From Candidatus Oxydemutatoraceae bacterium (lineage in GTDB: Bacteria; Pseudomonadota; Gammaproteobacteria; Poriferisulfidales; Oxydemutatoraceae): 64,000 bases of DNA. Where the stretch lies: positions 128,001 through 192,000 of the forward strand of contig CBDCOZ010000001.1 in NCBI GenBank assembly GCA_965220085.1, written 5' to 3'. Position 1 is the first letter of the stretch. Each line of letters starts with the position of its first letter. Positions 629 to 38,492 of the stretch are shown here, in pieces. The notes beneath the pieces were generated by a model. That model did no database searches. It saw only the letters and a list, made by a program, of their open reading frames with translations, and had not been told where the DNA came from. A program made the translations under genes and the position numbers.

Positions 629-1627
629 TTACCGCAACGGGCCCTCCAGGAAGAGGCGTAGCCGCAAGCGCAGGTTGGCGGCACATTCCGTCGCACCATT
701 CAGATTCGCCCCCTGCGGAGACATGCCCGCTCCGCAATCGAAAACATACCGCACCGAATCCTCCTTTTCCGGAAAGGCGAGCTCTGCTGCGCCGAATACA
801 TCCGCGCACTGCGGCGAACCCGAACCGAAAACGCACCATTCAAATTCCGTCTCGCCCGAAATCAGCGGGATGTTGCACCTGAAGAAGGCGGTGGCGGTGG
901 AAATAGTCCACCCCTGATCCGCACATGTGCGAATCCCCTCCCGCTCGGCGGGGGTTAAGCCGGTCGGAAAGGCCGTGCAGTTCGGCCATGTGCCGACGTG
1001 CGAGTTCAAATCGCAGGAGCATTCGGTTGCGCCCTTCAGGTTTTGGTCCGGCGGATAGCCGCCGGGGATACTTCCGCCCTGGTCGCAATTTGCCACAAAG
1101 CGGTCCCCGCCCTCGGGTTTAACGGTGGGATGGTCCGCCGCTTTCGGAAAAACCGGCGGACTGCCGTATATATCCGTGCATAATGGCAGATTCCCTCGAA
1201 CAAAACAGAATTGGGCTCCCCTGTTGACTTCCGTCATGTCGCCGTAAAGAAAGGATGGAATTTCGCATCCTAACTCTCCGGTGAAAAAGGAAATTAAGCC
1301 GCTGACGGTGCCGTCCCCCCATCCCGCATTCCTGCAAGCATTCACAATAGCGAAGTCCGCATCGGCAAAACAACCGGTGTTAAATTCGGAACCCGGCGCT
1401 GTGGAAGAGATTCGCGTTTGCCCTTGGGGGCATGGGGTTTGCGCTGACGCGCCGTCCGCGGCGAATGCGAATGCGAGCATCATCGCCGCGCAAATTTTAA
1501 GAGGGTCAATTGACGCGAAGATTAATTCAGACATCCTGCGTGAAGACGCAACCAGCGACCGGAGGCTACGCCGAGTCATCGTCGCCCGGCAATGCGGGAG
1601 GGGAGTATCAAAAACTTGTCGTTTCAT
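629..1627 (-). CDS. Secreted Cys-rich protein with two internal repeats and C-terminal LRLRLRLFLEGPLR tag
   Basis: 332-aa ORF; MKRQVFDT leader, signal-like AAMMLAFAFAADGASAQ; repeated C..GW...C.IP...C...P.C.D..G...FP...R.V..C...NL.GATEC unit. Confidence 0.8.
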   Translation of the reverse strand: MKRQVFDTPLPHCRATMTRRSLRSLVASSRRMSELIFASIDPLKICAAMMLAFAFAADGASAQTPCPQGQTRISSTAPGSEFNTGCFADADFAIVNACRNAGWGDGTVSGLISFFTGELGCEIPSFLYGDMTEVNRGAQFCFVRGNLPLCTDIYGSPPVFPKAADHPTVKPEGGDRFVANCDQGGSIPGGYPPDQNLKGATECSCDLNSHVGTWPNCTAFPTGLTPAEREGIRTCADQGWTISTATAFFRCNIPLISGETEFEWCVFGSGSPQCADVFGAAELAFPEKEDSVRYVFDCGAGMSPQGANLNGATECAANLRLRLRLFLEGPLR

Positions 1628-1669
1628 AGTTCTACTCCCGATGTGGTTTGTATATAAAATGTGTTTCCA

Positions 1670-2650
1670 TTACCGCAACGGGCCTTCCAGGAAAAGCCGC
1701 AAGCGCAAGCGCAGACTTGAGCCGGATGTGCCGACCACAGGAAGGCCGAGGGTGCATCGCTCCTCGTCGTTCGGCGTGGAGTGCTGGTCCTTGAAGGAGG
1801 CGCATACGCGAATGTATTTGCCGGCATGGGCGGCAAGGGGCCTAAAGTTAGCATCGGTGGCATCCTCTATATCGCCGTAGACACCGACTATAGAGGTGCC
1901 GCTGGAGGGCGCAGCGGCCTGTTGCCACTGCCAGGCAAGGGTACTTGTATCAATGCCATTTTGATCCGCCACGCCGTATATGGAAGCCGTCAGCGGCGTA
2001 TTGAGGCGATATGAAATGGCCGTGCCGCCCGCCACCGTGGGCGTGCCGACGGCTTCCTGTTGTATGGGTGACCCCACCACCAGGTTGATGGTGATGATGC
2101 CGCGCGAACTGTCAATGGTGGTTGCATCAAGGGAGAAGCCCGTATAGGCGAAACTGGTGTAGTTGGGAGTGACAGAGATGGCGTCATCGGGGAGCACCCA
2201 AACGAGATTTCGTGAATCCCCGTCGGCAAAGTCGCCGGATACCAGCAAATTCAAGTCATTATCAATGCGGATAATGCTTCCGCTCCTCTTAATCAATATG
2301 CCGCGGTCAGGCAAAGTGGCCACTTCTATGGCAAAACCACCGATTGCAAGGCTGGCGCCACTCGCATCGGTGAAGGCAAAGTCGGTGGTCTTGAAGGTGT
2401 AGGCGGAGCCTCCAATCGGAACATCAACGCTGATATTCTTGGCTACGGGGACGCCGCCGGTCTGTGCCCAGGCGCAGGTTGCGCCCAATGCCCAGACACA
2501 GCAACAACAGACCGCGCACAGCCGGGTGCGCGACCGTGCTACGGCGGATGGCGGGTTGCGATGTGCGGGTGATAAAAAACGGGCGGAAATGCCGGCAATC
2601 CCCTTGTTTACAAGACTGCGCGGGCGCGTATCAAAAATTTGTCTGTTCAT
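1670..2650 (-). CDS. Secreted Ig/cadherin-like adhesin-type protein with LRLRLRLFLEGPLR tag
   Basis: 326 aa; MNRQIFDT leader, ALGATCAWAQ cleavage-like site; DFAFTD/TLPDRG and LTAS..D.NG..WQWQ..IRVCASF motifs typical of Ig-like adhesin repeats. Confidence 0.8.
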   Translation of the reverse strand: MNRQIFDTRPRSLVNKGIAGISARFLSPAHRNPPSAVARSRTRLCAVCCCCVWALGATCAWAQTGGVPVAKNISVDVPIGGSAYTFKTTDFAFTDASGASLAIGGFAIEVATLPDRGILIKRSGSIIRIDNDLNLLVSGDFADGDSRNLVWVLPDDAISVTPNYTSFAYTGFSLDATTIDSSRGIITINLVVGSPIQQEAVGTPTVAGGTAISYRLNTPLTASIYGVADQNGIDTSTLAWQWQQAAAPSSGTSIVGVYGDIEDATDANFRPLAAHAGKYIRVCASFKDQHSTPNDEERCTLGLPVVGTSGSSLRLRLRLFLEGPLR

Positions 2651-2693
2651 AGCATTACTCCTATGGTGGTTTGCATATACAGTGTGTTTCCCA

Positions 2694-3782
2694 TTACCGC
2701 AACGGGCCTTCCAGGAAGAGACGCAAGCGCAAGCGCAGACTTGAGCCGGACGACGTACCTTCCACAGGAGCGCCTATGCTGCATCGCTCCTCGTCTGCCG
2801 CCGCGGGGTGCTGGTCCTTGAAGGAGGCGCAGACGCGAATGTATTTGCCGACATGGGCGGCGCGCGGCGTGAAGCCGGAGGTGAGGCCGCCCGTTGTCGC
2901 GGCGCCCGCATCGCTGTAGGCATCATCACTGACTGCAGAGGTGCCGCTGGAGGGGATATCGGCCTGTTGCCACTGCCAGGCAAGGGTGCTTGTATCAATG
3001 CCATTTCGATCCTCCACGCCATAGATGGAAGCTGTCAGCGGCGCATTGGTGGCATATGAAGTGCCCATGCCGCCCGTCACCGTGGGCGCCCCCCCGGCGA
3101 CCTGTTGCGTGGTTTCTCCCAGAACCAGATTGATGGTGACAGTGCCATGCGAACTGATGGCGGTGGTATCACTCAGAGAGTAGCCGCGATAAGTGAAACT
3201 GGCAAAGCCGGGGGTGATGGAAATGGCCTCGGGGGGAGGTATCCAGAACAGATTTTGCGAAGAGTTGGCGCCAAAGTCGCTGGGGATGACTGAGCTCGTA
3301 TCCTCATTGCCGCGGAGAATGGTTCCGTTCCTCCTGACCAATCTGCCACGGTCAGGCACAGTGATTATTTCCACAACAAACTTGCTTCTGGTGGCGGCGT
3401 TGCCATCCGCATCCTCGAAGGCAAAGTCGTTTAGCTGAAAGAGATAGCGATCGCTCGCAACCCCGACATCAATGCTGGTATCCTGGGCGGCGGGGATGCC
3501 GCTTGTCTGGGCCGAGGCGCAGGTCGCGCCCAATGCCAGGGACAGCGCTAACAGGCAACGCGCGGCGGCTCCGGCCATAGCCCGGCGGGCGGTGTTTGCC
3601 GGGCGCACTGCAACAGACCGCAACGACAGCATCAACCCGCGCATCGCCGGGGGGCGAGACCGCTTTGCGGACTGCGGATATGCGGGTGATAAAAAACGGG
3701 TGAGAAGGCGATACGGCGAAACGCCGACAATCCCCTTATTGAGAAGACTGCGCGGGCGCGTATCAAAAGTTTGTCGTTTCAT
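2694..3782 (-). CDS. Secreted Ig/cadherin-like protein with LRLRLRLFLEGPLR tag
   Basis: Start placed at ATG 3782 (MKRQTFDT, RBS AGGAG) by analogy with paralogs; the ORF-track extension to 4064 overlaps the upstream gene. Confidence 0.85.
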   Translation of the reverse strand: MKRQTFDTRPRSLLNKGIVGVSPYRLLTRFLSPAYPQSAKRSRPPAMRGLMLSLRSVAVRPANTARRAMAGAAARCLLALSLALGATCASAQTSGIPAAQDTSIDVGVASDRYLFQLNDFAFEDADGNAATRSKFVVEIITVPDRGRLVRRNGTILRGNEDTSSVIPSDFGANSSQNLFWIPPPEAISITPGFASFTYRGYSLSDTTAISSHGTVTINLVLGETTQQVAGGAPTVTGGMGTSYATNAPLTASIYGVEDRNGIDTSTLAWQWQQADIPSSGTSAVSDDAYSDAGAATTGGLTSGFTPRAAHVGKYIRVCASFKDQHPAAADEERCSIGAPVEGTSSGSSLRLRLRLFLEGPLR

Positions 3783-3825
3783 AGCATTACTCCTATGGCG
3801 GTTTGCATATACAGTGTGTTTCCCA

Positions 3826-4990
3826 TTACCGCAACGGGCCTTCAAGGAAGAGACGCAGGCGCAAGCGCAGACTTGAGCCGGACGACGTACCTTCCACAGG
3901 AAGGCCGATGCCGCATTGCTCCTCGCCTTTCGGTGTGGAGTGCTGGTCCTTGAAGGAGGCGCATACGCGAAGGTATTTGCCGACATGCTCGGCACGAGGC
4001 GTGAAGCCGGAGGAGAGGCCGCCCGTTGTCGCGGTGCCCTGTATAGGGCTGTAGTCACCCTCACTGACTACAGAGGTGCCGCTGGAGGGGATATCGGCCT
4101 GTTCCCACTGCCAGGCAAGGGTGCTTGTATCAATGCCATTTCGATCAGCCACGCCATAGATGGAGGCTGTCAGCGGCGTATTGACGGCATATGAAGTGCC
4201 CGTGCCGCCCGTCACCGTGGGCGCACCAGTGGGGCTTAGTTGCGAGGATGCTCCCACCAGATTGATGGTGATGGTGCCATGCAAACTGTCGGTGTCGACA
4301 TCATTGAAACTGTAGCCGCGATAAGTAAAACTGGTATAGGCGGGGGTGACAGAAATGGCATCAAAGGGAGGAACCCAGAGTGGATTTGCTAAATTTTGGT
4401 CCCCAAAGTCGCCAGGGAGGAATACACTCCCCGTATGATTGCTGCGGATAACGGTAGCGTTTCTTTTAACCAATATGCCATGGGCAGGCAAAGTGACCAC
4501 TTCCACGACGAAACTATTTCTGTTGGCGGTGTTGCCATTCGCATCCTTGAAGGCAAAGTCGTTGAGCCGAAACTCGTAGGCGCTACTCCCAATCCGGACA
4601 TCAATGCTGGTATCCTGGGCGGCGGGGATGCCGCCTGTCTGGGCCCAGACGCAGGTTGCGCCTAATGCCAGAGACAGGGCCAGCAGGCAACGCGCGGCGG
4701 CTCCGGTCATAGCCCGGCGGGCGGTGTTTGCCGGGCGCACTGCAACAGACCACAGCGACAGCATCAACCCACGCACCGCCGGGGGGCGAGACCGCTTTGC
4801 GGACTGCGGATATGCGGGTGATAAAAACCGGGTGAGAAGGCGATACGGCGAAACGCCGACAGGCCCCTTGCTTGTAAGGCTAGGGGGGGGGGGGGGGTAG
4901 TATTAACATTCTCTGCTTCGCACTATATGCTTGCAAATACAACCGCTTCCGCCTGCTTGAGGGGGCGGTATTAGAAGCTTGTCGGTTCAT
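3826..4990 (-). CDS. Lead gene of the array; Ig-like secreted protein with tag, frameshifted at a poly-C15 tract (putative phase-OFF)
   Basis: GAGGAG RBS and ATG 4990 (MNRQASNT...) read to a stop just after C15; the frame of ORF 3826..4776 resumes as PSLTSKGPVGVSPYRLL, matching paralog RSLLNKGIVGVSPYRLL. Confidence 0.7.
4883..4897. repeat. G15 homopolymer (C15 on coding strand)
   Basis: Seen directly. Confidence 0.9.
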
Positions 4991-6015: not shown

Positions 6016-6933
6016 CTAATTAAAAATCTCGTTGAAGATCTGAGTTACATCTTTATCAAGGTTGTCGTCGCTATAGTCGGCATGCGGAATGCTTAAATTC
6101 TCCAACACTTTCTTAAAGCGTCTAAAGCCGGGCTCGCTTCTTAATTCTACCCACTCAACTTCCCGACTATCCAGTTGCTTCTTATTTGTATCAGAAAGTT
6201 TATCGGCAATAAAAACTTGGCTATCTCTCGCTATTACAGCATCCGCACTCTCGGGATTGCCTTTCCCCATAAGTTTGACTTCGCATTTATATTCTTTTTT
6301 GCCATGTCGCAAATAGAAATCTGCCTCTCTTACAATGGTTTCATCGGAGGAACTCTTTTTGGATATGGCGGCGTAATTTTCTTCGGGGACGTGATAAAGT
6401 TTGCACAGGGTCTGCATGAGAGGTTTCTCAACTCTTTTCCCGGCCGTGCTCCACAGACCTCCTCTTAAAGCCGCTCGTTTAACCGCCAGTGAGTTAATCA
6501 CTATCAGGCTTTCGCTTACATTTAAGTCTATTGAAACGCTTTTTAGTTTAATGGTGAGTGTTAAATCAACTTCATTTTCAGTCTCAACCAATTCTTTTAT
6601 TGCGTTGTAAAGGGTTTCATAATGATTATTTGAGGCATCTATAACAATTTCTTTTCTGGTTGAGTTGAACATGTTCCTGATGGTTTTCATATTTAGCCCC
6701 GAATGGATGGCAATTTCTTCTTTGGGGAAGCTTGAATCAAGCAAAAAAGCTTTTTTGCACCAATCAACACCTATTGCTTGGTTGGCAAGTTTGGCGTCCA
6801 CAATTTTTTTGAAAAAGTCTATTGCGCATTGAAGGAATTTCGCATTGATGCGCGCGACAACTTCTATCCTATAGTCATCTCCGTTCAAAAGTCTCTTGAT
6901 AATATTTTGTATTGCTTGTTCTGTTAGTGTCAT
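6016..6933 (-). CDS. Type II restriction endonuclease, CfrBI-like
   Basis: KRAALRGGLWSTAGKRVEKPLM, READF..CEVKLMGKGNPESAD (PD-D/ExK); coupled to MTase; low GC. Confidence 0.8.
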   Translation of the reverse strand: MTLTEQAIQNIIKRLLNGDDYRIEVVARINAKFLQCAIDFFKKIVDAKLANQAIGVDWCKKAFLLDSSFPKEEIAIHSGLNMKTIRNMFNSTRKEIVIDASNNHYETLYNAIKELVETENEVDLTLTIKLKSVSIDLNVSESLIVINSLAVKRAALRGGLWSTAGKRVEKPLMQTLCKLYHVPEENYAAISKKSSSDETIVREADFYLRHGKKEYKCEVKLMGKGNPESADAVIARDSQVFIADKLSDTNKKQLDSREVEWVELRSEPGFRRFKKVLENLSIPHADYSDDNLDKDVTQIFNEIFN

Positions 6934-8312
6934 TTTCCAATCGTTTTCTTAAATTCGGACAAAGATAAAAAACATGTTTCTCGCTTATCAAACAAACTAT
7001 GTTTCTTAAAATGCTTTTTCATATAAGCAAAATATTTTGGTTCTTGTTCGGCTAAGAAGAAATACCTGTTCATGGTTCGGGCTGCTCGGCCAAAGGTTCC
7101 GCTGCCCGCAAAAGGATCAAATACCAGGTCTCCCTTGTAGCTATAGTACTTGATAACCTTTTCACACAGGTCTGCCGGGAATACCGCAGAATGGACTTTA
7201 TTGAATGTCGGGTCTATGTGCCATGCGTTTGTTGACTCAAACTCGCCTTCAACCTTGCTTTCTTGCATCGTTTCTCTGTCGTACTGTCTGATATTCCAAT
7301 CGAGGAGTTTGGATGTCTGCTTGCGATACACCATGAGATATTCTGTAACAGTATTAGGCTTGTATCCGAGCGGTTTTCTGTGCTGCATGAAACCTCCCAC
7401 CCGATTTTTGACACTGGCTTCTGGCTTTATCCACACGATGTCGTCAATGAACTCCCAATCCATCTGAACCAGCAGATGGTGGAGATCAAAAGGAATCGGA
7501 TAACGTTTTGAAGAGTGTTGTCGGCTTATTCTTGGGATTATGATTGGTGAAGTATTTACTATGAGAAAACGCCCTTCTTTGGTCTTGTCAGAAGTCAACT
7601 GAAACACTTCTTTTAGAAAGTCCAAGTATGCTTGGTAGCTTGGATAAATTGAGTAGTCGCGCGCGTTGTAATACGGCGGCGATGTAAATGTCAGATGAAA
7701 GCTATCATCGGGGACGAGTTTAAGAACCTCTCTGACGTCATCATGTACCGCGACATTTTTGAGGAAGTCATAGGATTCCGCATGAGGCTGTCCTGATTCT
7801 TTTTCGCGCGCATTTGAAAAGTACTCCTTGCGAATGACTTTTGTCACCATTTCATTTTCATGTTTGATCAGAGATTTGAGTTTTTTGTCAACGTCTGGTC
7901 GCCCTTTGAATACCAACAAGGCTCTGATGGCTTGGCAGATTATTTTGGGGTCTTTGTCATCAAGAATTTTGAAGAGAATCTGCCGAGTGTTCTCAGAGCG
8001 TTGTCGGCCTATTGACGAAACCGCTTCGCGTCTAATATCTGTCACATTGTCTTGCAAAGCGGTTTTCTCCAAGTATGGAATAAATGCCTGGTTCTTTAAT
8101 TTGCCTATGGTTTTAACCGCGCCAAGGCGAACATGCTTGCTTTTGTGTCCCAAAAGGTCGGGCAACCAACTGCCGTCAAAATCTTCGGGCAAATGGCCTA
8201 AGTTCTCAAGTATATGGACTATTGCGCCGCTCTCATTTTGAGATTTTACCAATTTAGCAATCTCTCCATTGCCCGCTCTTTTAAGTTCGTTTATGTGATG
8301 TTTTGAAATCAT
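6930..8312 (-). CDS. N4-C/N6-A DNA methyltransferase with N-terminal HEAT repeats
   Basis: TSPPY catalytic motif before DPFAGSGT SAM motif (beta class); VRLGAVKTIG / IRREAVSSIG HEAT-like repeats. Confidence 0.88.
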   Translation of the reverse strand: MISKHHINELKRAGNGEIAKLVKSQNESGAIVHILENLGHLPEDFDGSWLPDLLGHKSKHVRLGAVKTIGKLKNQAFIPYLEKTALQDNVTDIRREAVSSIGRQRSENTRQILFKILDDKDPKIICQAIRALLVFKGRPDVDKKLKSLIKHENEMVTKVIRKEYFSNAREKESGQPHAESYDFLKNVAVHDDVREVLKLVPDDSFHLTFTSPPYYNARDYSIYPSYQAYLDFLKEVFQLTSDKTKEGRFLIVNTSPIIIPRISRQHSSKRYPIPFDLHHLLVQMDWEFIDDIVWIKPEASVKNRVGGFMQHRKPLGYKPNTVTEYLMVYRKQTSKLLDWNIRQYDRETMQESKVEGEFESTNAWHIDPTFNKVHSAVFPADLCEKVIKYYSYKGDLVFDPFAGSGTFGRAARTMNRYFFLAEQEPKYFAYMKKHFKKHSLFDKRETCFLSLSEFKKTIGK

Positions 8313-9120: not shown

Positions 9121-9123
9121 GAC

Positions 9124-27816: not shown

Positions 27817-30800
27817 GTGCGGGACACTTTCTTCAAAAACCGATACTTGACAGCGGCCATCGCGGTTGCGCTGGGGCTGTTTTTCGTGTTGCAACGCGAA
27901 GAACCGCAGCCGCTGATCCCGGACGACCCCTCTATGCCGCAGGCGTTGCGCGCGGCGATGGTCGAGCGCGATTTCGCCGCCGGCGCGCGCCAGATCAAGA
28001 CGCGCGCAACGGCGGTTGCCGCCGCGGCGGCTGCCGTCGTCGGTCGCAAAGCGCGGCAACGGTTAATTGTCCTTCATGATCCGGATGTCACGCGTATCGA
28101 CGGTGTCATGGAGACGCTCGCAAACTTTCCGGAGGTGACGGTGGAGGATATGCCGTTATTCAATATGTCGATCATAGAGGCGCCGGCGAGTTGGAACCTG
28201 CAATGGCTGAATGCGCTCGTCTCACTCGACGACTCCATTGAAGCGGTCGGCCCCGATATGATCGCCAAAGGTCTGGCGGTGACGCCGAACGATCCCGACT
28301 TCGGACAGCAACGCCACTTGTATCACGCGAGTTCTCCGGGCTCGGATATCAATGCGCGGGAAGCGTGGGCCTATACGACCGGCAACCCCGATGTCATCGT
28401 GGCGGTGATAGATTCGGGCATAGACTATACATACGACGATTTGGCTTCCAACCTGTGGGTCAATCGCGCGGAAGCCGACGGCGTTGCCGGTGTCGATGAC
28501 GATAACAACGGTTGTATCGATGACATACACGGCTGTGATTTTGTCAATGACGACGGCGACCCGTGGGATGACCGCGGGCACGGCACCCCGGTGGCGAGCG
28601 TTATCGGCATGCAAGGGAATAACGGGAGATTGGGCGCCGGCATCAACTGGAATGCCTCGATTATGTCGCTCAAGACGATCGACTACGACAACGACGGGCG
28701 CGTATCCGATAGCGTGCGGGCGTACTACTATGTTCTGAAGATGCGTTTGGCCGGGCACAACATACGGCTTATCAATGCCAGTTACGGAACGATTATCAGC
28801 GGCACAAACAGCTGTGCCCGGGAGGATTTGCCGACCGCCATAAGAGCCGAGCATATCGCGCTTGAGGAGTTGGGGCGCAACGGCGTGATGACCGTCGCCG
28901 CCGCCGGCAACGAAGGCAGGGACATTGACGACCCGAGCGCAAACCGCATCACTACGCCGGCTTGCCTGGACATAGACGGGTTGTTGAGCGTCGCCTCTTT
29001 GTCTTCCCGCGGTCTTCTGGCGGGCAGTTCCAATTACGGCGCCGAGTCGGTGGACTTGGCGGCCCCCGGCACGGGCGTGTTTGCGCTTGCCCCCGGGCGG
29101 AGGAACTTTCGCGGAGACTACGGGCAGGTCTCAAGCTATGTTCCCGCGGAGCGCAAAGCCCAAGCCGCGCGGTTGGAGACCGTCGTTTCAATTCCCGCCG
29201 ATACGACGGCAACGGCGGGCTGGAGCGTCGAAGGCGGCTGGGCGCGGGTGGCGGAAGGGGAAAGAATCTATTGGACCGACAGCCCCGATGGCAACCACCC
29301 CAATCAGGCCGATTTCAGCGTGACCCGCGACCCGATCGATTTGAGCATGTACGGCGAGAATGATTACTTGTTTCTGTCATTTGAACTTGCCACCGACCTG
29401 GAGTATGAGCCAAACCCTTCGTTGCCTCCGATATACTGCGCTTCTTCGTTTTGCGACGCCCTGTTTTTGGAAATCAGCGTCGATGGTCGGGATTGGCGGG
29501 CGCTGGATGCGTGGAGCAATATTAATTTTGCATCCGATGTTTCCATAGGCATTCCCCGCTGGGCGTATCGTGAGAACTTTCAATTCCGCTTCCGCCTGGT
29601 TTCGGATCCCGGCACGAACAAAGATGGCGTCAGGATCTACGATATTGCGCTGACCCGCTCCGATACGGGCAGCGATGTTTCGGTGCGCTTGAGCGGCACC
29701 TCGTTTGCCGCTCCGATGGTCACCGGCGCGGCCGCGTTGCTGTGGTCTTTCAAGCCCGATTTAACGCTCGCCGAAGTGCGTTCGGCGATACTTGACAACG
29801 TGCGGCCTTCCGCTGTCGCGGCGGTGCAAAACGGCACGGCAAGCGGCGGCACGCTCGATGCCGCCGCCGCGTTGCATTCTGTCGCCGAAGACGGCATTGA
29901 CTTGCAAGCGGGAGAAATCGCGCTGGTCGAAGGCGAGGAAGGGATGTTTGCGTTGCGCCTGACCCGCCCTCCGCAAGCGCCCGACAGCGTCGATCCCGGC
30001 GGCACATTGTCGAGTGACGACCCGCCGCCGACCATGCCGGACGCCGTTGCGGAGCAAGTGGCGCTGGCTGTCACCGCCGACCCGGCATCGCGTATTCGGG
30101 TGGATACGCCCGCTATCACGTTTACTCCGCAGAACTGGCACATCCCCCAAGCGGTTCGCTTCACAGCGGTTGACGATAACTTGGCCAATGGCGATGTGAT
30201 GGCGAGGCTGCAAGTTGCGGTGCGCGCGGACGAGTCTGTGCCTTCGTATCGCGAGTTGCCGCCACAGACGGTCGTCGTCAGCGTGGCGGACAATGAGTCA
30301 AAGTTATCGTTAGCCCCCGGCGCTCCGACACAAGTGGCGGAAGGCGCGAGCGCCACCTTCGCATTGTTGCTTGAGCCGGCCTTGAGCGAAGACCTGACCG
30401 TCACGTTGAGCGCGACCGGCAGCGCAATCGCAGGACAGGATTATCGGGCATTGCCCGCTGCTATAACGATAGCCGCCGGTGCGGGGCGCGCGGAACTGAC
30501 CCTGACGACGATTGATGATGCGTCGGCCGAGCGCACAAAAAACGTTTTGATACGGGTTGTGCCGCCGCCGTCGGCATCGGTCGTTCAAGATCCCGTATTG
30601 ATTCCGCTGGACATAGAAGACGATGACGCGCAACGTTTTTCGGTTGCGCTTGACAGAGACCGTATCAAGGAAGGCGAGCGCGCGCTTGTCACTATCGACA
30701 CGTCTATCGGCACGACCGAGGCTGTCGTCCTTTTGACAGACCGTATCGGCGGAGATGCAAGCGCCGAAGACTATCACATACCTGCGCCGGTCACGTTGCC

Positions 30801-31887
30801 GGCGGGTCAAACACAGCAACAGTTCTTTGTGACCGCCCGGACCGATGACCAAGACGAAGCCGACGAAGAGTTAATCATCCGCATAAGGTCCGCGGACGAA
30901 ACCCGGTTGCGAGGGGAGCGCCGATTTGCTCTGACGCTGGAAGATACGACGATTCCCAAGTTATTGCCCCTGTCGCCGGCAGAGGCAGAGGAAGGCGAGA
31001 CGGTGCGCATTGAGTTGCAAGTCGATACGCCGCCGTTGCAAGCCGTATCCGTGTGGGTGGCGGCGACGGGCACCGCCGTGCTCGGCGCGGATTATCCGTA
31101 TTTGCCGCATCAACTGCGTATTCCGGCGGGCGGAACCCGCACTTCGTTTTCGTTGCTGACCACCGAGGATAATCTTTTTGAGCCGGATGAACAGATTCGC
31201 TTGGTGTTTGCGCCGACGACTGCGACCGACGGACACCCGTTGTTGGCGAGCAGTCAAACGATGACGGTGACGATTCGCAATACCGACGGGCGGCCGCAAT
31301 TGGCATTGGACTCGCGGCTTCGTACCGACGCCGATGGCGACGCCGACCCTCAGCACCCCCCGCTCGTGATTCCGCCGAATACTCCGGACTTTGAGATGTA
31401 CGGCGTTGAGCTGGCTCGCTACCTCTCGTCGGTTCTTCCGCCGAGCGCCGCCGCCGAGTTGATCACCGTTGTGGCGACGGAAGAGGCGGGAGTGCGGCAC
31501 GGTTTTCGCGTTCGTATCGATCCCGCATCCGCGTATGCCGAAGCGATCACGATAGAGACATCGGGCACCGCTATTTACGGGCGCGACTACCGGATACATT
31601 TTCAACAGCCCGGCATGGAGTCGGTCGAACTGACCGAAGCGTCGGCGCGGACGAATATCGCGACAGGCACTCGAGTCGTCGCTGTTTTTGTCGAACCGCT
31701 TGCGGATGATACCGACGAAGACTTGTTTGAATTCGTCGAGGTTCGCGTATCGCCCGACGCAGGCGCGAACTTGGAAGGGGATGCGGCATTCGGATTTGTC
31801 ATCGCTTCCACTTCTGCGCTCATCTTTCAAGAGGCGGAGCCCATCAGGCTGCGCTTGCGCCTCTTTCTGGAAGGCCCGCTGCGGTAG
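27817..31887 (+). CDS. Secreted S8 subtilase with Calx-beta-like repeats and LRLRLFLEGPLR tag
   Basis: VAVIDSG, HGTPVA, AAGNE, GTSFAAP catalytic motifs; GSAIAGQDY-type repeats. Confidence 0.92.
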   Translation: MRDTFFKNRYLTAAIAVALGLFFVLQREEPQPLIPDDPSMPQALRAAMVERDFAAGARQIKTRATAVAAAAAAVVGRKARQRLIVLHDPDVTRIDGVMETLANFPEVTVEDMPLFNMSIIEAPASWNLQWLNALVSLDDSIEAVGPDMIAKGLAVTPNDPDFGQQRHLYHASSPGSDINAREAWAYTTGNPDVIVAVIDSGIDYTYDDLASNLWVNRAEADGVAGVDDDNNGCIDDIHGCDFVNDDGDPWDDRGHGTPVASVIGMQGNNGRLGAGINWNASIMSLKTIDYDNDGRVSDSVRAYYYVLKMRLAGHNIRLINASYGTIISGTNSCAREDLPTAIRAEHIALEELGRNGVMTVAAAGNEGRDIDDPSANRITTPACLDIDGLLSVASLSSRGLLAGSSNYGAESVDLAAPGTGVFALAPGRRNFRGDYGQVSSYVPAERKAQAARLETVVSIPADTTATAGWSVEGGWARVAEGERIYWTDSPDGNHPNQADFSVTRDPIDLSMYGENDYLFLSFELATDLEYEPNPSLPPIYCASSFCDALFLEISVDGRDWRALDAWSNINFASDVSIGIPRWAYRENFQFRFRLVSDPGTNKDGVRIYDIALTRSDTGSDVSVRLSGTSFAAPMVTGAAALLWSFKPDLTLAEVRSAILDNVRPSAVAAVQNGTASGGTLDAAAALHSVAEDGIDLQAGEIALVEGEEGMFALRLTRPPQAPDSVDPGGTLSSDDPPPTMPDAVAEQVALAVTADPASRIRVDTPAITFTPQNWHIPQAVRFTAVDDNLANGDVMARLQVAVRADESVPSYRELPPQTVVVSVADNESKLSLAPGAPTQVAEGASATFALLLEPALSEDLTVTLSATGSAIAGQDYRALPAAITIAAGAGRAELTLTTIDDASAERTKNVLIRVVPPPSASVVQDPVLIPLDIEDDDAQRFSVALDRDRIKEGERALVTIDTSIGTTEAVVLLTDRIGGDASAEDYHIPAPVTLPAGQTQQQFFVTARTDDQDEADEELIIRIRSADETRLRGERRFALTLEDTTIPKLLPLSPAEAEEGETVRIELQVDTPPLQAVSVWVAATGTAVLGADYPYLPHQLRIPAGGTRTSFSLLTTEDNLFEPDEQIRLVFAPTTATDGHPLLASSQTMTVTIRNTDGRPQLALDSRLRTDADGDADPQHPPLVIPPNTPDFEMYGVELARYLSSVLPPSAAAELITVVATEEAGVRHGFRVRIDPASAYAEAITIETSGTAIYGRDYRIHFQQPGMESVELTEASARTNIATGTRVVAVFVEPLADDTDEDLFEFVEVRVSPDAGANLEGDAAFGFVIASTSALIFQEAEPIRLRLRLFLEGPLR

Positions 31888-32378: not shown

Positions 32379-35300
32379 ATGCGGGATACTTTCTTCAAAA
32401 ACCGGTATTTGATAGCGGCGGTTGCGGTTGCGCTGGGGCTGTTTTTCGTGTTGCAACGCGAAGAACCGCAGCCGCTGATCCCGGACGACCCCTCTATGCC
32501 GCAGGCGTTGCGCGCGGCGATGTCCGAGCGCGATTTCGCTGTCGGCGCGCGCCAAATCAAGACGCACGCGGCAACGGCGGCAGCCGTCGTCGGCCGCAAA
32601 GGGCGGCAGCGGTTGATCGCAATTCACGACCCGGATGTCACGCGTATCGACGGTGTCATGGAGACGCTCGCAAACTTTCCGGAGGTGACGGTGGAGGATA
32701 TGCCGTTATTCAATATGTCGATCATAGAGGTGCCGGCGAGTTGGAACCTGCAATGGCTGAATGTGCTCGTCTCGCTTGACGACTCCATTGAAGCGGTCGG
32801 CCCCGACACAATCAACGAGGCCCGGGCAGTGATGCCGAACGATCCCAACTTCAGCGACCAACGCCACTTGCATAACGAGAGCGCTCCGGATTTGGATATC
32901 AATGCGCGCGAAGCGTGGGCCTATACGACCGGCACCGCCGATGTCATCGTTGCGGTCATGGATTCGGGCATCGACTACACCTACGACGATTGGGCTTCCA
33001 ACCTGTGGGTCAATCGCGCGGAAGCCGACGGCGTTGCCGGTGTCGATGACGATAACAACGGTTGTGTCGATGACATACACGGCTGTGATTTTGTCAATGA
33101 CGACGGCGACCCGTGGGATGACGAGGGGCACGGCACCGCGGTGGCGAGCGTTATCGGCATGCGGGGGAATAACGGGAAATTGGGCGCCGGTATCAACTGG
33201 AATGCCTCGATCATGTCGCTCAAGGTGCTCGGCTATGACAGCCGGGGACGCACATCCGACATTATTCTGGCGTACTACTATGTTCTGAGGATGCGTCTGG
33301 CCGGGCACAACATACGGCTTATCAATGCCAGTTTTAGCGCGGTCATCAGCGGCGCCAGTCAGTGCGACAGGGAGCGGTTATCGGCAACCAGAAGGATGCA
33401 GTATATCGCGATTGAAGAGCTGGGGCGCAACGGTGTGATGACCGTCCAAAGTGCCGGCAATGACAGCAGCAACCTGGATAATCCGAATGAGGGCCGCATC
33501 GTCGTGCCGGCTTGCTTTGATATAGACGGGTTGTTGAGCGTCGCCTCTTTGTCTTCCAACGGTTCTCTGGCGCGCAGTTCCAATTACGGCGCCGAGTCGG
33601 TGGACTTGGCGGCCCCCGGCACGGGCGTGTTTGCGCTTGGTCCCGGCAGGGCTTTTTCCGGAAGCTACACGCAGACCCCAAACTATGCTCCCGCGCAACG
33701 CAAAGCCCCGGACGCCCAGTCGGAGACGGTCGTTTCAATTGCCGCCGATACGACCTCAACGGCGGGCTGGAGCGTCGAAGGCGGCTGGGCGCGGGTGGCG
33801 GAAGGGGAAAGAATCTATTGGACCGACAGCCCCGATGGCAACTACCCCAATCGGGCCGATTTCAGCGTGACCCGCGATCCGATCGATCTGAGCGAGTACG
33901 GCGAGGATGATTACTTGTTTCTGTCATTTGAACTTGCCACCGACCTGGAGTATGAGCCAAACCCTTCCACACCCCCGATACGCTGTGCTTCTACGTTTTG
34001 CGACGCCCTGTTTTTGGAAATCAGCGTCGATGGTCGGGATTGGCGGGCGCTGGATGCGTGGAGCGATGTGAATTTCGCCGACGATGTTTCCATAGGCATC
34101 CCCCGCTGGGCGTATAGCGAGAACTTTCAATTCCGCTTCCGCCTGGTTTCGGATCCCGGCACGAACAAAGATGGCGTCAGGATCTACGATATTGCGCTGA
34201 CCCGCTCCGATACGGGCAGCGATGTTTCGGTGCGCTTGAGCGGCACCTCGTTTGCCGCTCCGATGGTCACCGGCGCGGCTGCTTTGCTGTGGTCTTTCAA
34301 GCCCGATTTAACGCTCGCCGAAGTGCGTTCGGCGATACTTGACAACGTGCGGCCTTCCGCTGTCGCGGCGGTGCAAAACGGCACGGCAAGCGGCGGCACG
34401 CTCGATGCCGCCGCCGCGTTGCATTCTGTCGCCGAAGACGGCATTGACTTGCAAGCGGGAGAAATCGCGCTGGTCGAAGGCGAGGAAGGGATGTTTGCGT
34501 TGCGCCTGACCCGCCCGCCGCAAGCGCCCGACAGCGTCGATCCCGGCGGCACATTGTCGAGTGACGACCCGCCGCCGACCATGCCGGACGCCGTTGCGGA
34601 GCAAGTGGCGCTGGCTGTCACCGCCGACCCGGCATCGCGTATTCGGGTGGATACGCCCGCTATCACGTTTACTCCGCAGAACTGGCACATCCCCCAAGCG
34701 GTTCGCTTCACAGCGGTTGACGATAACTTGGCCAATGGCGATGCGGTGGCGAGGCTGCAAGTTGCGGTGCGCGCGGACGAGTCTGTGCCTTCGTATCGCG
34801 AGTTGCCGCCACAGACGGTCGTCGTCAGCGTGGCGGACAATGAGTCAAAGTTATCGTTAGCCCCCGGCGCTCCGACACAAGTGGCGGAAGGCGCGAGCGT
34901 TGCCTTCGCATTGTTGCTTGAGCCGGCCTTGAGCGAAGACCTGACCGTAACGCTGACGACGACCGGCAGCGCGATCGCGGGACAAGACTATCAGGCGTTG
35001 CCCGCCACGATAACAATCGCCGCCGGCGAAGAGCGCGCGGAGTTGACCCTGACGACGATTGATGATGACGTGGCCGAGCGCACAGAAAGGGTTTTGATAC
35101 GGGTCCTGCCGCCGTCGACGTCGACATCGGTCGTTCAAGATCCCGTATTGATTCCGCTGGACATAGAAGACGATGACGTGCAACGTTTTTCGGTTGCGCT
35201 TGACAGAGACCGTATCAAGGAAGGCGAGCGCGCGCTTGTCACTATCGACACGTCTATCGGCACGACCGAGGATGTCGCCCTTTTGACAGACCGTATCGGC

Positions 35301-38300
35301 GGAGATGCAAGCCCCGAAGATTATCAAATACTACCTGCGCAGGTCACGTTGCCGGCGGGTCGAACACAACAGCAGTTCTTTGTTGCCGCCCGGACCGATG
35401 ACCAAGACGAAGCCGATGAAACTCTGATCATCCGCATAAGGTCCGCGGACGAAACCCGGTTGCGAGGGGAGCGCCAACTTGCTTTGACGCTGGAAGATAC
35501 GACGATTCCCGAGTTGCTGCCCCCGGCGCCGGTGTCGGTCGGCGAAGGCGAGACGGCGCACATTGAGTTGGAAGTCAATACGCCTGTGCTGCAAGAAGTG
35601 TCCGTGTGGGTGGTCGCGACGGGCACCGCCGTGCTCGGCGCGGATTATCCGTATTTGCCGCATCGGTTGCTTATTCCGGCGGGCTCCACCCGCACTTCGT
35701 TTTTGTTGCGACCGACCGCGGATGATATTTTTGAGCCGGATGAACAGATTCGCTTGGGATTCATACCGGCCGACGAACAACTGTTGTCGGGCAGTCAAAC
35801 CCTGACTGTGACGGTTCGCGATACCGGCGCGCGGCCGGAATTGGCATTAAATCCCGGCCGACTTTGGATTAGCGGGGAGGCTCGGTACCCTAGGGCGGTT
35901 ATTCCGCCGAGCGCCGCCGGCGAGTTGGTGACCGTTGTGGCGCGGGAAGAGACGGATGTGCGGTTCGGTTTGTCCGTTCGTATCGATCCCGTATCCGCTT
36001 TTGCCGAAGCGATCACGATAGAGACATCGGGCGCCGCTGTTTACGGGCAAGACTACCTGGCATATTTTTGGCAGTCGGGCCTTCTGACCGGATTGCCCGA
36101 GATGCCCGCGCAGAGGGATATCGCGACCGATACTTCAATCGTCGCTATTTTTATTGAGCCGATTGCGGATGATGTTGACGAATGCTTGTTCAAACACATC
36201 GAGGTGCGCGCATCGCCCGGCGAAGATACAAACTTGACCGGGGAGGCGGCGTTTGAATTTGTTATCGCGTCAACGTCCGCGCCGTCGTTTTCCGTAGCGC
36301 CCGCCGGGTTGCAATCGGTTGAGGAAGGCCAAAGCATCGAGGCCACGCTCCTGTTCTGCAATCCGTTGCTGCGTGACGAAATCTTCTATTTGAGCATCGA
36401 CGATACCGCCGTCTCGCCCGGCGCTGCGGCGGCGGACCCCGGCGATTACATATTCCCGCCGTTGTTTGCGGCGCCAAGGGGGGCGACCCAAACCGTCGTG
36501 CGCATCTTAATCCGCGCCGATGGCATTGCGGAACCCGCCGAGGAGTTGCGCCTGGTTTTTAATCCGGCTGATCCCGGCGGCGGTTTGACCGGGCGGGCGC
36601 AACTCAGTCTGGTGATAGAAGATAGGTCGAGGTTATCGTTGGCCGCCGACGCTCCGACACAAGTGGCGGAAGGCGCGAGCGCCACCTTCGCCTTGTTGCT
36701 GGAGCCGCCCTTGAGCGAAGACCTGACCCTGATGCTGACGACGACCGGCAGCGCGATCGCGGGACAGGACTATCGGGCGTTGCCCGCCACGATAACGATA
36801 GCCGCCGGCAAGGAGCGCGCGCAGTTGACCCTGACGACGATCGATGATGCGGCGGTCGAGCGCACAGAAAGTGTTTTGATACGGGTCCTGCCGCCGTCGA
36901 CGTCGACATCGGTCGTTCAAGATCCCGTATTGATTCCGCTGGATATAGAAGACAATGACGCGCAACGTTTTTCGGCTGCGCTTGACAGAGACCGTATCAA
37001 GGAAGGCGAGCGCGCGCGGGTCACTATCGACACGCCTGTCGGCACGACCGGGGATGTCGCCTTTTTGATAGACCGCATCGGCGGAGATGCAAGCCCCGAA
37101 GATTATCAAATACCTGCGACGGTCACGTTGCCGGCGGGTCAAACGGAACAGCAGTTCTTTGTTACCGCCTTGACAGATGACAAAGACGAAGCCGATGAAG
37201 AGTTGATTATCCGCATAAGGTCCGAGGATGAAGCTCGGTTGCAAGGGGAGTACGAATTTACTCTGACGTTGGAAGATACGACGATTCCCGAGTTGTTGCC
37301 TCTGTCGCCGAGGTCGGTTGAGGAAGGCACGACGGCGACCATTGAGTTGGCGGTCGATACGCCGGTGTTACAAGCCGTATCCGTCGCGGTGACAGCGACA
37401 GGCACCGCCGTATTTGGCACGGATTATTCGTATTCGACGCAACAGTTGGTGATTGCGGCGGGTTCCACCCGCACTTCGTTTTTGCTAGAAGCGCTCAAGG
37501 ATGATATTTTTGAGTTGGAGGAGCGGATTATCCTGACGTTTGCGCCGACCGATGAACAACTGCTGTCGGGCAGTCAAACGATGACTGTGACGATTCGCAA
37601 CACCGATGAACGGCCGAAATTGGCATTAGTTCCCCAGCTTGTTGTTGACGGGGACCCTCGGCACCCTTCGGCGGTTCTTCCGCCGAGTACTGCCGGCGAG
37701 TTGGTTACCGTTGTGGCGAGGGAAGATGCGGGCGCACGGTCCGGTTTTTCCGTGAGCATCGATCCCGCATCCGCTTTTGCCGAAGCGATCACGATAGAGA
37801 CCTCTGCCACCGCTGTTTACGGGCAAGACTACCGGATACATTTTCGCCAGTCCGGTGCGGAATCGGTCGCGCTGCCCGCAGCGCCGGCGCGGGCGGATAT
37901 CGCGACAGGCACTCGAGCCGCTGCTATTTTTGTCGAACCGCTTGCCGATGACGTTGACGAATGCAAATTCAAATTCATCGAGGTTCGCGCATCGCCCGGC
38001 GAAGGGACAAACTTGACCGGGGAGGCGGCGTTCGGGTTTGTCATCGCTTCTGCGTCCGCGCCGTCGTTTTCCGTAGCGCCCGCCGGAGCGCGATCGGTTG
38101 CGGAAGGCCAGAGCATAGAGGTCACGCTCCTTTTCTGCAATCCGTTGCTGCGTGATGAGGTTATCAATCTGCGCGTTGACGAGACCGCCGTCTCAACCGG
38201 CACGGCGGCGGCGGGCCCCGACGATTACGCACTCTTGCCGCAGTCTTTGACGGTGCCGCAACCTTTGACGGCGCCAAAGGGGGCGACCCAAACCGTCGTG

Positions 38301-38492
38301 CGCCTCTTAATCCTTGCCGATGATACGGACGAACCTGCCGAGGAGTTGCGCCTGCTTTTTGAGCCGGCAGACCCCGGCGGCGGTTTGACCGGGCGGGCGC
38401 GAATCAGTTTCGTGATAGAAGACGTGATGTCTCGAGATTCGGAACCTGTCAAACTGCGCTTGCGTCTCTTTTTGGAAGGCCCGTTGCGGTAG
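32379..38492 (+). CDS. Secreted S8 subtilase paralog (2037 aa) with duplicated Calx-beta module and LRLRLFLEGPLR tag
   Basis: VAVMDSG, HGTAVA, SAGND, GTSFAAP; ~590-aa module repeated (from ~34848 and ~36630). Confidence 0.92.
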   Translation: MRDTFFKNRYLIAAVAVALGLFFVLQREEPQPLIPDDPSMPQALRAAMSERDFAVGARQIKTHAATAAAVVGRKGRQRLIAIHDPDVTRIDGVMETLANFPEVTVEDMPLFNMSIIEVPASWNLQWLNVLVSLDDSIEAVGPDTINEARAVMPNDPNFSDQRHLHNESAPDLDINAREAWAYTTGTADVIVAVMDSGIDYTYDDWASNLWVNRAEADGVAGVDDDNNGCVDDIHGCDFVNDDGDPWDDEGHGTAVASVIGMRGNNGKLGAGINWNASIMSLKVLGYDSRGRTSDIILAYYYVLRMRLAGHNIRLINASFSAVISGASQCDRERLSATRRMQYIAIEELGRNGVMTVQSAGNDSSNLDNPNEGRIVVPACFDIDGLLSVASLSSNGSLARSSNYGAESVDLAAPGTGVFALGPGRAFSGSYTQTPNYAPAQRKAPDAQSETVVSIAADTTSTAGWSVEGGWARVAEGERIYWTDSPDGNYPNRADFSVTRDPIDLSEYGEDDYLFLSFELATDLEYEPNPSTPPIRCASTFCDALFLEISVDGRDWRALDAWSDVNFADDVSIGIPRWAYSENFQFRFRLVSDPGTNKDGVRIYDIALTRSDTGSDVSVRLSGTSFAAPMVTGAAALLWSFKPDLTLAEVRSAILDNVRPSAVAAVQNGTASGGTLDAAAALHSVAEDGIDLQAGEIALVEGEEGMFALRLTRPPQAPDSVDPGGTLSSDDPPPTMPDAVAEQVALAVTADPASRIRVDTPAITFTPQNWHIPQAVRFTAVDDNLANGDAVARLQVAVRADESVPSYRELPPQTVVVSVADNESKLSLAPGAPTQVAEGASVAFALLLEPALSEDLTVTLTTTGSAIAGQDYQALPATITIAAGEERAELTLTTIDDDVAERTERVLIRVLPPSTSTSVVQDPVLIPLDIEDDDVQRFSVALDRDRIKEGERALVTIDTSIGTTEDVALLTDRIGGDASPEDYQILPAQVTLPAGRTQQQFFVAARTDDQDEADETLIIRIRSADETRLRGERQLALTLEDTTIPELLPPAPVSVGEGETAHIELEVNTPVLQEVSVWVVATGTAVLGADYPYLPHRLLIPAGSTRTSFLLRPTADDIFEPDEQIRLGFIPADEQLLSGSQTLTVTVRDTGARPELALNPGRLWISGEARYPRAVIPPSAAGELVTVVAREETDVRFGLSVRIDPVSAFAEAITIETSGAAVYGQDYLAYFWQSGLLTGLPEMPAQRDIATDTSIVAIFIEPIADDVDECLFKHIEVRASPGEDTNLTGEAAFEFVIASTSAPSFSVAPAGLQSVEEGQSIEATLLFCNPLLRDEIFYLSIDDTAVSPGAAAADPGDYIFPPLFAAPRGATQTVVRILIRADGIAEPAEELRLVFNPADPGGGLTGRAQLSLVIEDRSRLSLAADAPTQVAEGASATFALLLEPPLSEDLTLMLTTTGSAIAGQDYRALPATITIAAGKERAQLTLTTIDDAAVERTESVLIRVLPPSTSTSVVQDPVLIPLDIEDNDAQRFSAALDRDRIKEGERARVTIDTPVGTTGDVAFLIDRIGGDASPEDYQIPATVTLPAGQTEQQFFVTALTDDKDEADEELIIRIRSEDEARLQGEYEFTLTLEDTTIPELLPLSPRSVEEGTTATIELAVDTPVLQAVSVAVTATGTAVFGTDYSYSTQQLVIAAGSTRTSFLLEALKDDIFELEERIILTFAPTDEQLLSGSQTMTVTIRNTDERPKLALVPQLVVDGDPRHPSAVLPPSTAGELVTVVAREDAGARSGFSVSIDPASAFAEAITIETSATAVYGQDYRIHFRQSGAESVALPAAPARADIATGTRAAAIFVEPLADDVDECKFKFIEVRASPGEGTNLTGEAAFGFVIASASAPSFSVAPAGARSVAEGQSIEVTLLFCNPLLRDEVINLRVDETAVSTGTAAAGPDDYALLPQSLTVPQPLTAPKGATQTVVRLLILADDTDEPAEELRLLFEPADPGGGLTGRARISFVIEDVMSRDSEPVKLRLRLFLEGPLR

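Follow-up and report, generated by a model that had tools for sequence, protein, structure and literature searches.

The DNA examined here, referred to as the window, is a stretch of 64,000 nucleotides (positions 128001-192000 of contig C1) from the genome of a Candidatus Oxydemutatoraceae bacterium, which comprises 2,492,841 bases in 3 contigs and is designated G000 below. Six open reading frames (ORFs) of the window all terminate in the same peptide, LRLRLFLEGPLR, directly followed by a stop codon; this ending is called the tail, and the proteins that bear it are called carriers. Four carriers are encoded on the minus strand: a Cys-rich protein of 332 amino acids with the leader MKRQVFDT (629..1627), for which neither Pfam nor NCBIfam gave a match; a protein of 326 amino acids (1670..2650); one of 363 amino acids when read from an MKRQTFDT start (2694..3785, in an open frame that reaches 4064); and one of 316 amino acids whose start is uncertain (3826..4776). 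The tail-coding segment of the Cys-rich carrier (629..673, minus strand) consists of 14 codons plus TAA and ends ...NLRLRLRLFLEGPLR, and those of the other three lie at 1670-1714, 2694-2738 and 3826-3870, the four stop codons being at 629-631, 1670-1672, 2694-2696 and 3826-3828. The two carriers of the plus strand are large proteases, one of 1,356 amino acids with S8 subtilase, Calx-beta and DUF5006 domains (27817..31887; tail 31843-31887, stop 31885-31887), and the other of 2,037 amino acids with an S8 subtilase, three Calx-beta and a DUF5006 domain (32379..38492; tail 38448-38492, stop 38490-38492). The identical C-terminal peptide that a first-pass annotation of the window had described on six ORFs was therefore recovered on each of them. 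Two more carriers extend past the edges: the N-terminal part of a further tandem paralogue occupies 1..699 on the minus strand, with its tail just beyond the window at G000:C1:127482-127505, and the N-terminal part of a 900-amino-acid carrier occupies 63449..64000 on the plus strand, with its tail at G000:C1:194128-194151.

The four minus-strand carriers form a tandem array, in which the genes open with an MKRQ(I/V/T)FDT leader and a conserved intergenic stretch follows each stop, the next gene beginning 44 nucleotides downstream. Because the leader and the intergenic DNA are common to all four, these genes are, as judged from their sequences, paralogues, so that their tails do not count as independent copies. 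The two S8 proteases bear the same tail in a context different from that of the array. Regarding the three unrelated folds that the first-pass annotation had assigned to the six carriers, Pfam supported the S8, Calx-beta and DUF5006 assignments of the two proteases, but returned no domain match for the four carriers described as ‘Ig-like’ or ‘Cys-rich’, and this part of the claim was left without Pfam support. The family of the 326-residue carrier had 69 matches in G000 and 0 in 40 relatives. When the 80 residues that precede the tail were compared throughout the genome, they fell into 10 sequence classes with 79, 42, 36, 11, 11, 2, 2, 1, 1 and 1 members; of seven class-representative carriers submitted to Pfam, one contained 27 cadherin domains, one contained six PPC domains, and five had no match. 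BLAST clustering of whole carriers, by comparison, merged nearly all of them (components of 182, 2, 1 and 1), which is uninformative because the carriers are mosaics of common modules.

All six window carriers had also been described as having N-terminal signal-like segments. Genome-wide, a crude regular expression detected a signal-peptide-like segment in 136 of 188 carrier frames, as opposed to 197 of 1,295 other frames of at least 300 amino acids; it missed 52 carriers, although many of these show such a segment by eye, and the claim thus holds for most carriers and incompletely for the set. In many carriers, among them those at 629-4776, an unusually long N-terminal leader precedes the hydrophobic core and a cleavage-like site (..CAQAQAQ); the sequence of the leader is MKRQIFDT/NT.., in many cases with 7-10 consecutive Pro and an Arg-rich stretch after it, and is similar to an extended signal-peptide region. 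A TonB-dependent receptor is also encoded in the window, and the cell is therefore diderm.

A motif search of the proteome and of related genomes, recommended along with the initial observation, revealed that the phenomenon is far larger than the six cases then noticed. The back-translated pattern FLEGP[LF]R-stop occurred 214 times in G000 as opposed to 0 times for the reversed-pattern control, and the recurrence of the tail is therefore far above chance. With the pattern [FL]LEG[PA]LR-stop, 218 six-frame sites were found, of which 187 close an open frame of at least 100 amino acids and 186 close an ORF of at least 100 amino acids counted from the first start codon. Together, these 186 tail-bearing ORFs total 158,622 amino acids and occupy 19.1% of the bases of G000, the largest proteins among them having 15,193, 14,212, 13,236, 9,776 and 6,024 amino acids. 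The consensus of the tail extends over 14 residues, [LIV]-R-L-R-L-R-[LIV]-F-L-E-G-P-L-R, the final seven of which are identical in 186/186.

The codons of the tail were then tabulated. Over the last ten codons of the 187 sites, the first and second positions were invariant, save for the synonymous C/T first position of Leu, while the third positions varied (entropy 0.2-1.4 bits) and TAA, TAG and TGA were all in use as stops. Since the first two positions are fixed and the third positions and stops vary, selection is directed at the tail peptide and not at the DNA, in agreement with what the synonymous variation among the six window copies had originally suggested. The DNA around the tails has some regularities of its own. 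Past the stop, the next six bases tend towards CGCGAG, a weak consensus, and a longer element farther downstream, with ..GAGAAGGAGAGTGTTATGAGGCGC..GATGAGACAGGAT.., is common to about 18 carriers (for example, at G000:C3 17.5-24.3 kb, minus strand); flanking DNA of this kind may have been carried along as the tail spread. In addition, tandem arrays of frames of only 15-45 amino acids, each terminated by a tail, occur on G000:C3 near 909, 648.7, 513.8, 522 and 1,303.8 kb. The partly common 3' flanks with their weak consensus, and the tail-only miniature ORFs, are what one would expect if the tails were non-functional remnants of gene truncation, or a repeat that matters at the level of DNA, for instance in recombination or as a terminator. 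We nevertheless hold this explanation to be highly improbable, since the codon pattern just described extends over 187 copies, five genera have kept the tail, with endings that differ by lineage, and it closes intact ORFs amounting to 19% of the genome; a pure DNA repeat, in particular, is contradicted by the codon pattern.

The tail was next compared with described sorting signals. A search of the last 59-60 residues of three carriers against Pfam and NCBIfam, with E values up to 10, yielded no model that matches the tail. In its sequence, the tail is an alternation of Leu and Arg without a hydrophobic helix and without a terminal aromatic residue, as all 186 end in Arg. The searches and the sequence thus agree with the initial view that the tail lacks the transmembrane helix or terminal aromatic residue of known signals, and the match to a described sorting-domain hidden Markov model that had been named as a refuting outcome did not appear in Pfam or NCBIfam. 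The tripartite signals (LPXTG/sortase, PEP-CTERM/exosortase, GlyGly-CTERM/rhombosortase) resemble the present case in that a short, conserved C-terminal tag on many exported proteins corresponds to one partner gene, and a GlyGly-CTERM-like protein and a rhombosortase in fact adjoin the partner gene described below. Unlike LPXTG, PEP-CTERM, GlyGly-CTERM and MYXO-CTERM, however, the tail has neither a hydrophobic helix nor a basic cluster following it, and its proposed partner is a fragment of a fold and not a membrane protease or transpeptidase. The signal recognized by the β-barrel assembly machinery (BAM) is a C-terminal barrel strand that ends in an aromatic residue, usually Phe; the tails end in Arg, the carriers examined have no barrel domains, and the autotransporter barrel PF03797 had no match in G000. 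The C-terminal domain of the type IX secretion system (T9SS) is similarly a C-terminal β-sandwich element common to diverse secreted or surface proteins, but it is roughly 80 residues long whereas the tail has only 14, and T9SS domain models had no match in the carriers or in their last 59-60 residues (the search was for these models and not for the T9SS genes themselves). Among the publications searched, none contained FLEGPLR, and searches on the related strand motifs described below, and on split domains, strand complementation and dockerin, returned nothing relevant.

The origin of the tail became apparent in related genomes of the same family (family f1, 19 genomes in all). In three genomes of genus g3 (G015, G002 and G017), giant genes end in RVKLFLEGPFR-stop, RVRVFLEGPLQ-stop and similar sequences, and a gene of 276 amino acids with its own signal peptide lies between successive giant genes. 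With the 276-residue protein as query, matches were found in 15 of the 18 other f1 genomes and in 0 of 22 sister-family genomes. In G001, there were 27 matches, all inside giant ORFs of up to 17,496 amino acids, in which the matched region constitutes the C-terminal domain; this domain opens with ..ARAYLQGAY.., ..AGVYLEGAY.. or ..ARVVLQGAL.. and continues with VVDWVLxELR ... HRNH ... GDVNRDG. Alignment indicated that the stand-alone proteins begin directly after strand 1 (β1) of these fused forms: after the signal peptide they read M..L..(I/V)P..DPYC, the counterpart of M.TTL..LP..QPY in the fused domain, and the 276-residue protein of genus g3 accordingly starts exactly past the missing strand. 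In G000, the same query had one match, a stand-alone protein with a signal peptide encoded outside the window (C3:469169-470137), hereafter the acceptor. An exhaustive profile search (hmmsearch --max) of all six frames of G000 likewise returned one copy of the domain (C3:469157-470134, E 3.1e-65; next best 0.24), and this sole copy is without β1.

The missing strand was found on the carriers. A scoring matrix built from 81 fused β1 strands gave the tails of G000 a median of 24.5 bits, whereas 8,278 other frame ends had a median of -39 and a 99.9th percentile of -3.1, the best of them reaching 14.3. The resemblance to a ‘KVFLEGPY’-like opening strand of a domain in large extracellular proteins, which the first-pass annotation had pointed out, was correct. 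A profile search of 1.84 billion cluster representatives gave 14,821 matches to the domain at E<=1e-3, 9,077 at <=1e-10 and 1,083 at <=1e-30, and a set of 151 proteins was examined, consisting of 149 of the 150 listed best matches together with P0003 and P0006. The anchor DWVLxELR was present in 134 of the 151. Among the best matches, 99 copies of the domain lie inside longer proteins, and 77 of these carry V[FY]L[EQ]G[AP][YF] at most 110 residues upstream of the core, the remaining 22 having looser variants of this β1 motif; conversely, 34 of the 38 short proteins in which the domain follows right after the N-terminus are without the motif. On these alignments, the strand-less stand-alone form is an established type. 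Stand-alone forms also have four conserved Cys that are not found in fused forms, which would fit a strand-less fold held by disulfides outside the cytoplasm. That the stop codon might be read through or recoded, so that translation would continue into a domain farther downstream, was considered and rejected, as the next gene in the tandem array follows 44 nucleotides after the stop and the domain is single-copy in the genome.

Taken together, sequence comparison documents the homology of tail and β1, the stages of gene fission, the single acceptor gene and the synteny. The tail would thus be the detached first β-strand of a split C-terminal domain, whose remainder is one stand-alone acceptor. 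Since the domain is fused in G001, divided between adjacent genes in genus g3 and present as a single copy in G000, the forms can be arranged in a series, from the fused domain, through a gene split behind strand 1 that leaves donor and acceptor side by side (G015 and the like), to many donors with one acceptor.

Tails and acceptors also occur together across the family. In the counts that follow, the relaxed tail pattern gave a total of one reversed-control match over the 19 genomes of the family, and looser patterns added the tails of G009, G010 and G006. G000, the member of genus g1, had 217 tail matches (FLEGPLR-stop); genus g3 had 42 in G007, 32 in G015, 22 in G017, 17 in G002 and 16 in G011; genus g4 had 25 in G016 (FLEGALE-stop), 16 in G018, 8 in G003 (FLEGALQ-stop), 4 in G012 and 0 in G008; genus g5 had 5 in G009 (LEGAYP-stop) and 0 in G004 and G013; genus g2 had 3 in G010 and 2 in G006 (LEGAVIP-stop) and 0 in G001 and G014; and G005, of genus g6, had 0. 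Tails are thus present in 13 of the 19 genomes, with lineage-specific endings, and a stand-alone acceptor is present in 12 of these 13. Phylogenetic profiling for co-occurring genes had been proposed at the outset. G001 has fused domain copies only. Multi-copy tails were found in none of the 22 sister-family genomes, and among 401 genomes across the class, more than one tail match was found only in G000 and G003, both of family f1, while 24 others had a single match, which is the level of the control.

Complex prediction, also suggested in the first-pass annotation, was performed on the mature acceptor of G000, aligned with 39 stand-alone homologues, and the last 60 residues of the carrier at 1670-2650, aligned with the six window tails. 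The tail and acceptor scored 0.81 in ipSAE (runs of 0.80, 0.81 and 0.83), whereas the best of three controls scored 0.00; the score mark applied is attained by 116 of 157 solved complexes and by 2 of 215 mismatched pairs, although with custom alignments it is only a rough guide here. The runs agreed in at least 77% of contacts, had a partner pLDDT (predicted local distance difference test) of at least 48, and contained 128-130 confident contacts. The confident interface on the carrier comprised residues 45-60 only, i.e., the tail. The docked tail contacts the first five residues of the acceptor, consistent with the topology of the fused forms, and also several separate segments of the acceptor, including H165 and H168 of the invariant HRNH. 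The tail is therefore predicted to dock into the strand-less acceptor.

Such docking has precedents in principle. In donor-strand complementation, a β-sandwich is completed by a short amphipathic strand of a second polypeptide, in which hydrophobic residues alternate. The present system resembles that of chaperone-usher pili, and that of type V pili (FimA/Mfa1), in that an incomplete sandwich is completed in trans, here by prediction only; it differs in that the donor strand sits at the C-terminus of about 190 unrelated cargo proteins and that there is one acceptor and not a polymer of like subunits. Pilin, chaperone and usher families were absent from the Pfam and NCBIfam matches of the carriers, the acceptor and its neighbours (ushers were sought in these proteins and not genome-wide). 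In engineered split-protein tags such as strand 11 of split GFP, a single-strand tag binds the remainder by completing its fold. The tail resembles these as a detached strand that would complete a strand-less remainder, but it would be a natural tag in genome-wide use, and its docking is predicted.

These results bear on whether the tail could instead be an autonomous sorting signal, read by an Omp85/POTRA protein, by a PDZ domain (GspC, for example, has one), or by some translocon, with the likeness to β1 as a mere relic. POTRA and PDZ domains do bind partner strands by β-augmentation, which the alternating hydrophobic and basic residues and the free C-terminus of the tail would suit, and G018 has tails with no acceptor found. 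An acceptor-independent signal would, however, leave unexplained that tails and stand-alone acceptors occur together in 12 of the 13 tail-bearing genomes, that acceptors start exactly past the missing strand, that the tail endings change with lineage, as expected under co-evolution with each lineage's own acceptor, and that the docking prediction passes its controls; moreover, no candidate receptor was identified. We therefore consider an autonomous signal improbable. Of the two mechanisms entertained in the first-pass annotation, a dedicated translocon found no support, and docking by strand complementation is favoured on computational grounds.

The fold of the domain offers a further clue to what docking may accomplish. 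Pfam and NCBIfam contain no model for this C-terminal domain family of about 250 amino acids, and a word-indexed homologue search with the acceptor found just 2 relatives. AlphaFold2 (AF2) modeling of a fused copy from G001 (pLDDT 76.4, predicted template-modeling score (pTM) 0.80) produced a confident strand 1, followed by a β-sandwich and a helical end. In an exhaustive structural comparison, the best matches of the model were X-module-dockerin (XDoc) chains, namely 3kcp_A (Z 8.3, 147 residues aligned, root-mean-square deviation 3.9) and 5g5d_B (Z 7.9, 149/156 aligned), the next match having a Z of only 4.6, and Foldseek ranked the same XDoc chains first (5k39_B, E 1.3e-3, prob 1.00). The model displays the XDoc arrangement of an Ig-like X-module packed on a three-helix dockerin, a feature modeled on the G001 fused copy and not on the G000 acceptor itself; the domain is thus predicted to fold like the XDoc of cellulosomal scaffoldins. 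A type II XDoc binds type II cohesins of cell-anchoring proteins and thereby attaches a large protein to a cell-bound partner. The likeness to the XDoc of Clostridium (Acetivibrio) thermocellum CipA/ScaA (PDB 3kcp, 5g5d, 2b59, 5k39) consists of the best and well-separated structural match, the C-terminal position on very large extracellular proteins, and two Ca-loop-like motifs, such as GDVNRDGEVNITD, that are kept in relatives. The differences are a sequence identity of just 12-16%, a Gram-negative host, no Pfam dockerin above the cut-off (for Dockerin_1, only P0013 matched, with E 0.0022 and 18.6 bits, under the cut-off of 22.9), no cohesin found in G000 and, above all, the split of the module, the first strand of which sits on other proteins. 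The DW...ELR...HRNH motifs, invariant in the domain, are not known as XDoc features.

The neighbourhood of the acceptor, which lies outside the window, suggested what the anchoring partner might be. At G000:C3:469169-475607, the acceptor, a secreted protein of 1,369 amino acids and a rhombosortase are encoded in a row. The 1,369-residue protein starts 11 nucleotides past the acceptor gene; its C-terminal end comprises a choice-of-anchor U match below threshold, then eight consecutive Gly, a hydrophobic stretch and RRQRRYE, and the rhombosortase is encoded directly downstream of this protein (TIGR03902, 96 bits against a cut-off of 84). It is to be noted that the Gly-rich, transmembrane and basic elements of GlyGly-CTERM, along with the rhombosortase, are found in this neighbour and not in the tail, although the NCBIfam GlyGly-CTERM model itself did not match the neighbour. 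A regular expression found just two GlyGly-CTERM-like ORFs in G000, the second of which is a non-carrier with a single PPC domain by Pfam. In all five genomes examined (G000, G007, G011, G016, G003), the gene after the acceptor encodes a large, secreted protein with a transmembrane segment and an Arg-rich end. Choice-of-anchor U, with a cut-off of 32, scored above it in G016 (39.5 bits) and G003 (43.1) and below it in G000 (30.3) and G011 (21.9), and was not matched in G007. A rhombosortase follows the neighbour in G007 (144.2 bits) and G011 (127 bits) also, while a TusA-like gene occupies its position in G016. A word-indexed search with the N-terminal part of the neighbour found no relatives, and the neighbour had 0 matches among PDB sequences.

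Upstream of the acceptor in G000 lie the genes of a type II secretion system (T2SS), in the order gspD, gspA, B, E, F, pseudopilin, J, K, L and M, and then two rhodanese genes; the gspD secretin match scores 133 bits, and the cluster ends 3 kb upstream of the acceptor. In G007, gspE lies beside the rhodanese gene and the acceptor region. A rhodanese gene also precedes the acceptor in G007 and G011. In a report on Vibrio cholerae (PMC6219818), GlyGly-CTERM, rhombosortase and the T2SS are described as jointly needed to bring VesB to the cell surface. Because of this precedent, the conserved pairing of the genes, the rhombosortase and the T2SS, the anchored neighbour is a plausible surface anchor for the acceptor.

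On this evidence, we regard a many-to-one docking tag that completes a fold and serves surface display as the best and a probable reading of the tail, with the docking step itself predicted. Both the carriers and the acceptor would be exported by Sec; the tail would then insert as the missing strand into the β-sandwich of the acceptor, completing its fold on the principle of pilus donor-strand complementation, so that some 190 different cargo proteins would gain one common handle. The most likely next step would be display at the surface, the acceptor tying the cargo to the GlyGly-CTERM-like anchored protein encoded directly downstream, which the adjacent rhombosortase would process, while the T2SS encoded just upstream may provide the route across the outer membrane. 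Whether binding is stable or transient, which partner does the anchoring, how the outer membrane is crossed and where the cargo finally resides are all inferred.

Several observations weigh against this reading. One acceptor gene for about 190 donors is the main difficulty for an adaptor that acts stoichiometrically: a stable 1:1 complex would need very high expression of the acceptor, and the ratio would better fit a receptor or pilot. The passage of proteins of up to 15,193 amino acids across the outer membrane is unexplained. In the docking model, the fold of the carrier partner itself is uncertain (pLDDT 48-50), and the model may be rebuilding the domain from its knowledge of fused homologues, thereby reporting likeness and not binding in the cell. 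The first Ca-loop of the G000 acceptor is interrupted by an insertion, dockerin PF00404 has no match in G000, and cohesin PF00963 has none above cut-off (best E 0.056). As for the anchor, the AF2 model of the N-terminal module of the neighbour has no usable fold (pLDDT 38.9), and homology among the anchored neighbours can be recognised within genera but not between them. Finally, G018 has 16 tails and no acceptor was found in its assembly, which is 85% complete and in 260 contigs, and G013 and G005 contain acceptor-like matches yet no tails by the patterns used.

Some of these points would be accommodated if docking were transient, the acceptor being a periplasmic receptor or pilot that reads the tail by β-augmentation, hands the cargo to the T2SS or another exporter and is recycled, with the cargo afterwards released or retained by other means. 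Such a role would suit the ratio of about 190 donors to one acceptor, the location of the acceptor next to T2SS genes in G000 and G007, and the degenerate dockerin-like half in G000, where no cohesin was found. On the other hand, the same domain is permanently fused to giants in relatives (27 matches in G001), which points to a structural and not a catalytic role, the predicted interface is extensive, with its 128-130 confident contacts, and the conserved partner gene encodes an anchored protein and not a secretion component. We thus consider transient docking rather unlikely, and return to the fold-completing display tag in what follows.

The sister family f2 offers a comparison at the level of the whole surface. 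Autotransporter matches numbered 32 in G022, 9 in G019 and 8 in G024, these three genomes being of 1.6-2.0 Mb and the autotransporter giants reaching 12,365 amino acids in G024, whereas G000 had 0. Because f2 is thus rich in autotransporters and G000 is without them, it may be suggested that surface display is achieved differently in the two families. The possibility that a tail precedes the autotransporter barrel in relatives was tried and rejected: at seven sister-family barrel loci, no FLEG-like motif was found in the longest frame, only four of the seven frames checked being barrel proteins themselves (L024, L025, L026 and L032). A more ambitious interpretation is that the tail defines an undescribed class of sorting signal, a ‘fold-completion tag’, in which one strand on about 190 cargos, a strand-less XDoc-like adaptor, and a GlyGly-CTERM scaffold with rhombosortase and T2SS together make up a cellulosome-like display of a Gram-negative cell that replaces the autotransporters of the sister family; we put this forward tentatively and lean slightly against its holding in full.

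A few other features of the window and of the related loci may be recorded. The minus strand at 6016-8312 encodes a restriction-modification pair, in which a CfrBI-like endonuclease (96 bits) accompanies an N4/N6 DNA methylase that carries fused HEAT repeats, and on the plus strand at 22886-25133, an IS1595-family transposase (148 bits) adjoins a protein with an Mrr-like restriction endonuclease domain. Two adjacent ORFs of the minus strand, at 46592-48115 and 48156-48515, have the same first 30 residues, indicating a local duplication, and Pfam gave no match for the longer of the two. Beside the giant tail-bearing genes of G015 (L035:2487-4406) and G002 (L036:5348-6478) lie genes of the tetrahydromethanopterin pathway, namely an Mpt_N dehydrogenase, a GHMP-kinase-like protein and an ATP-grasp protein, which hint at one-carbon metabolism in family f1.

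The proposed docking would offer the first functional hypothesis for an unnamed domain family with 14,821 cluster representatives at E<=1e-3; a natural strand tag and its acceptor might also serve as a tool for protein coupling. If docking is real, a sorting logic would be at work that is new in requiring no membrane helix, no enzyme-cleaved motif and no secretion-channel signal, and a fifth of the coding capacity of the genome would be addressed by a single fold-completing tag of 14 residues. It would further explain how giant adhesins and proteases are displayed in a lineage without autotransporter barrels, and the tail would make the surface proteome of these uncultured bacteria easy to recognise from sequence.

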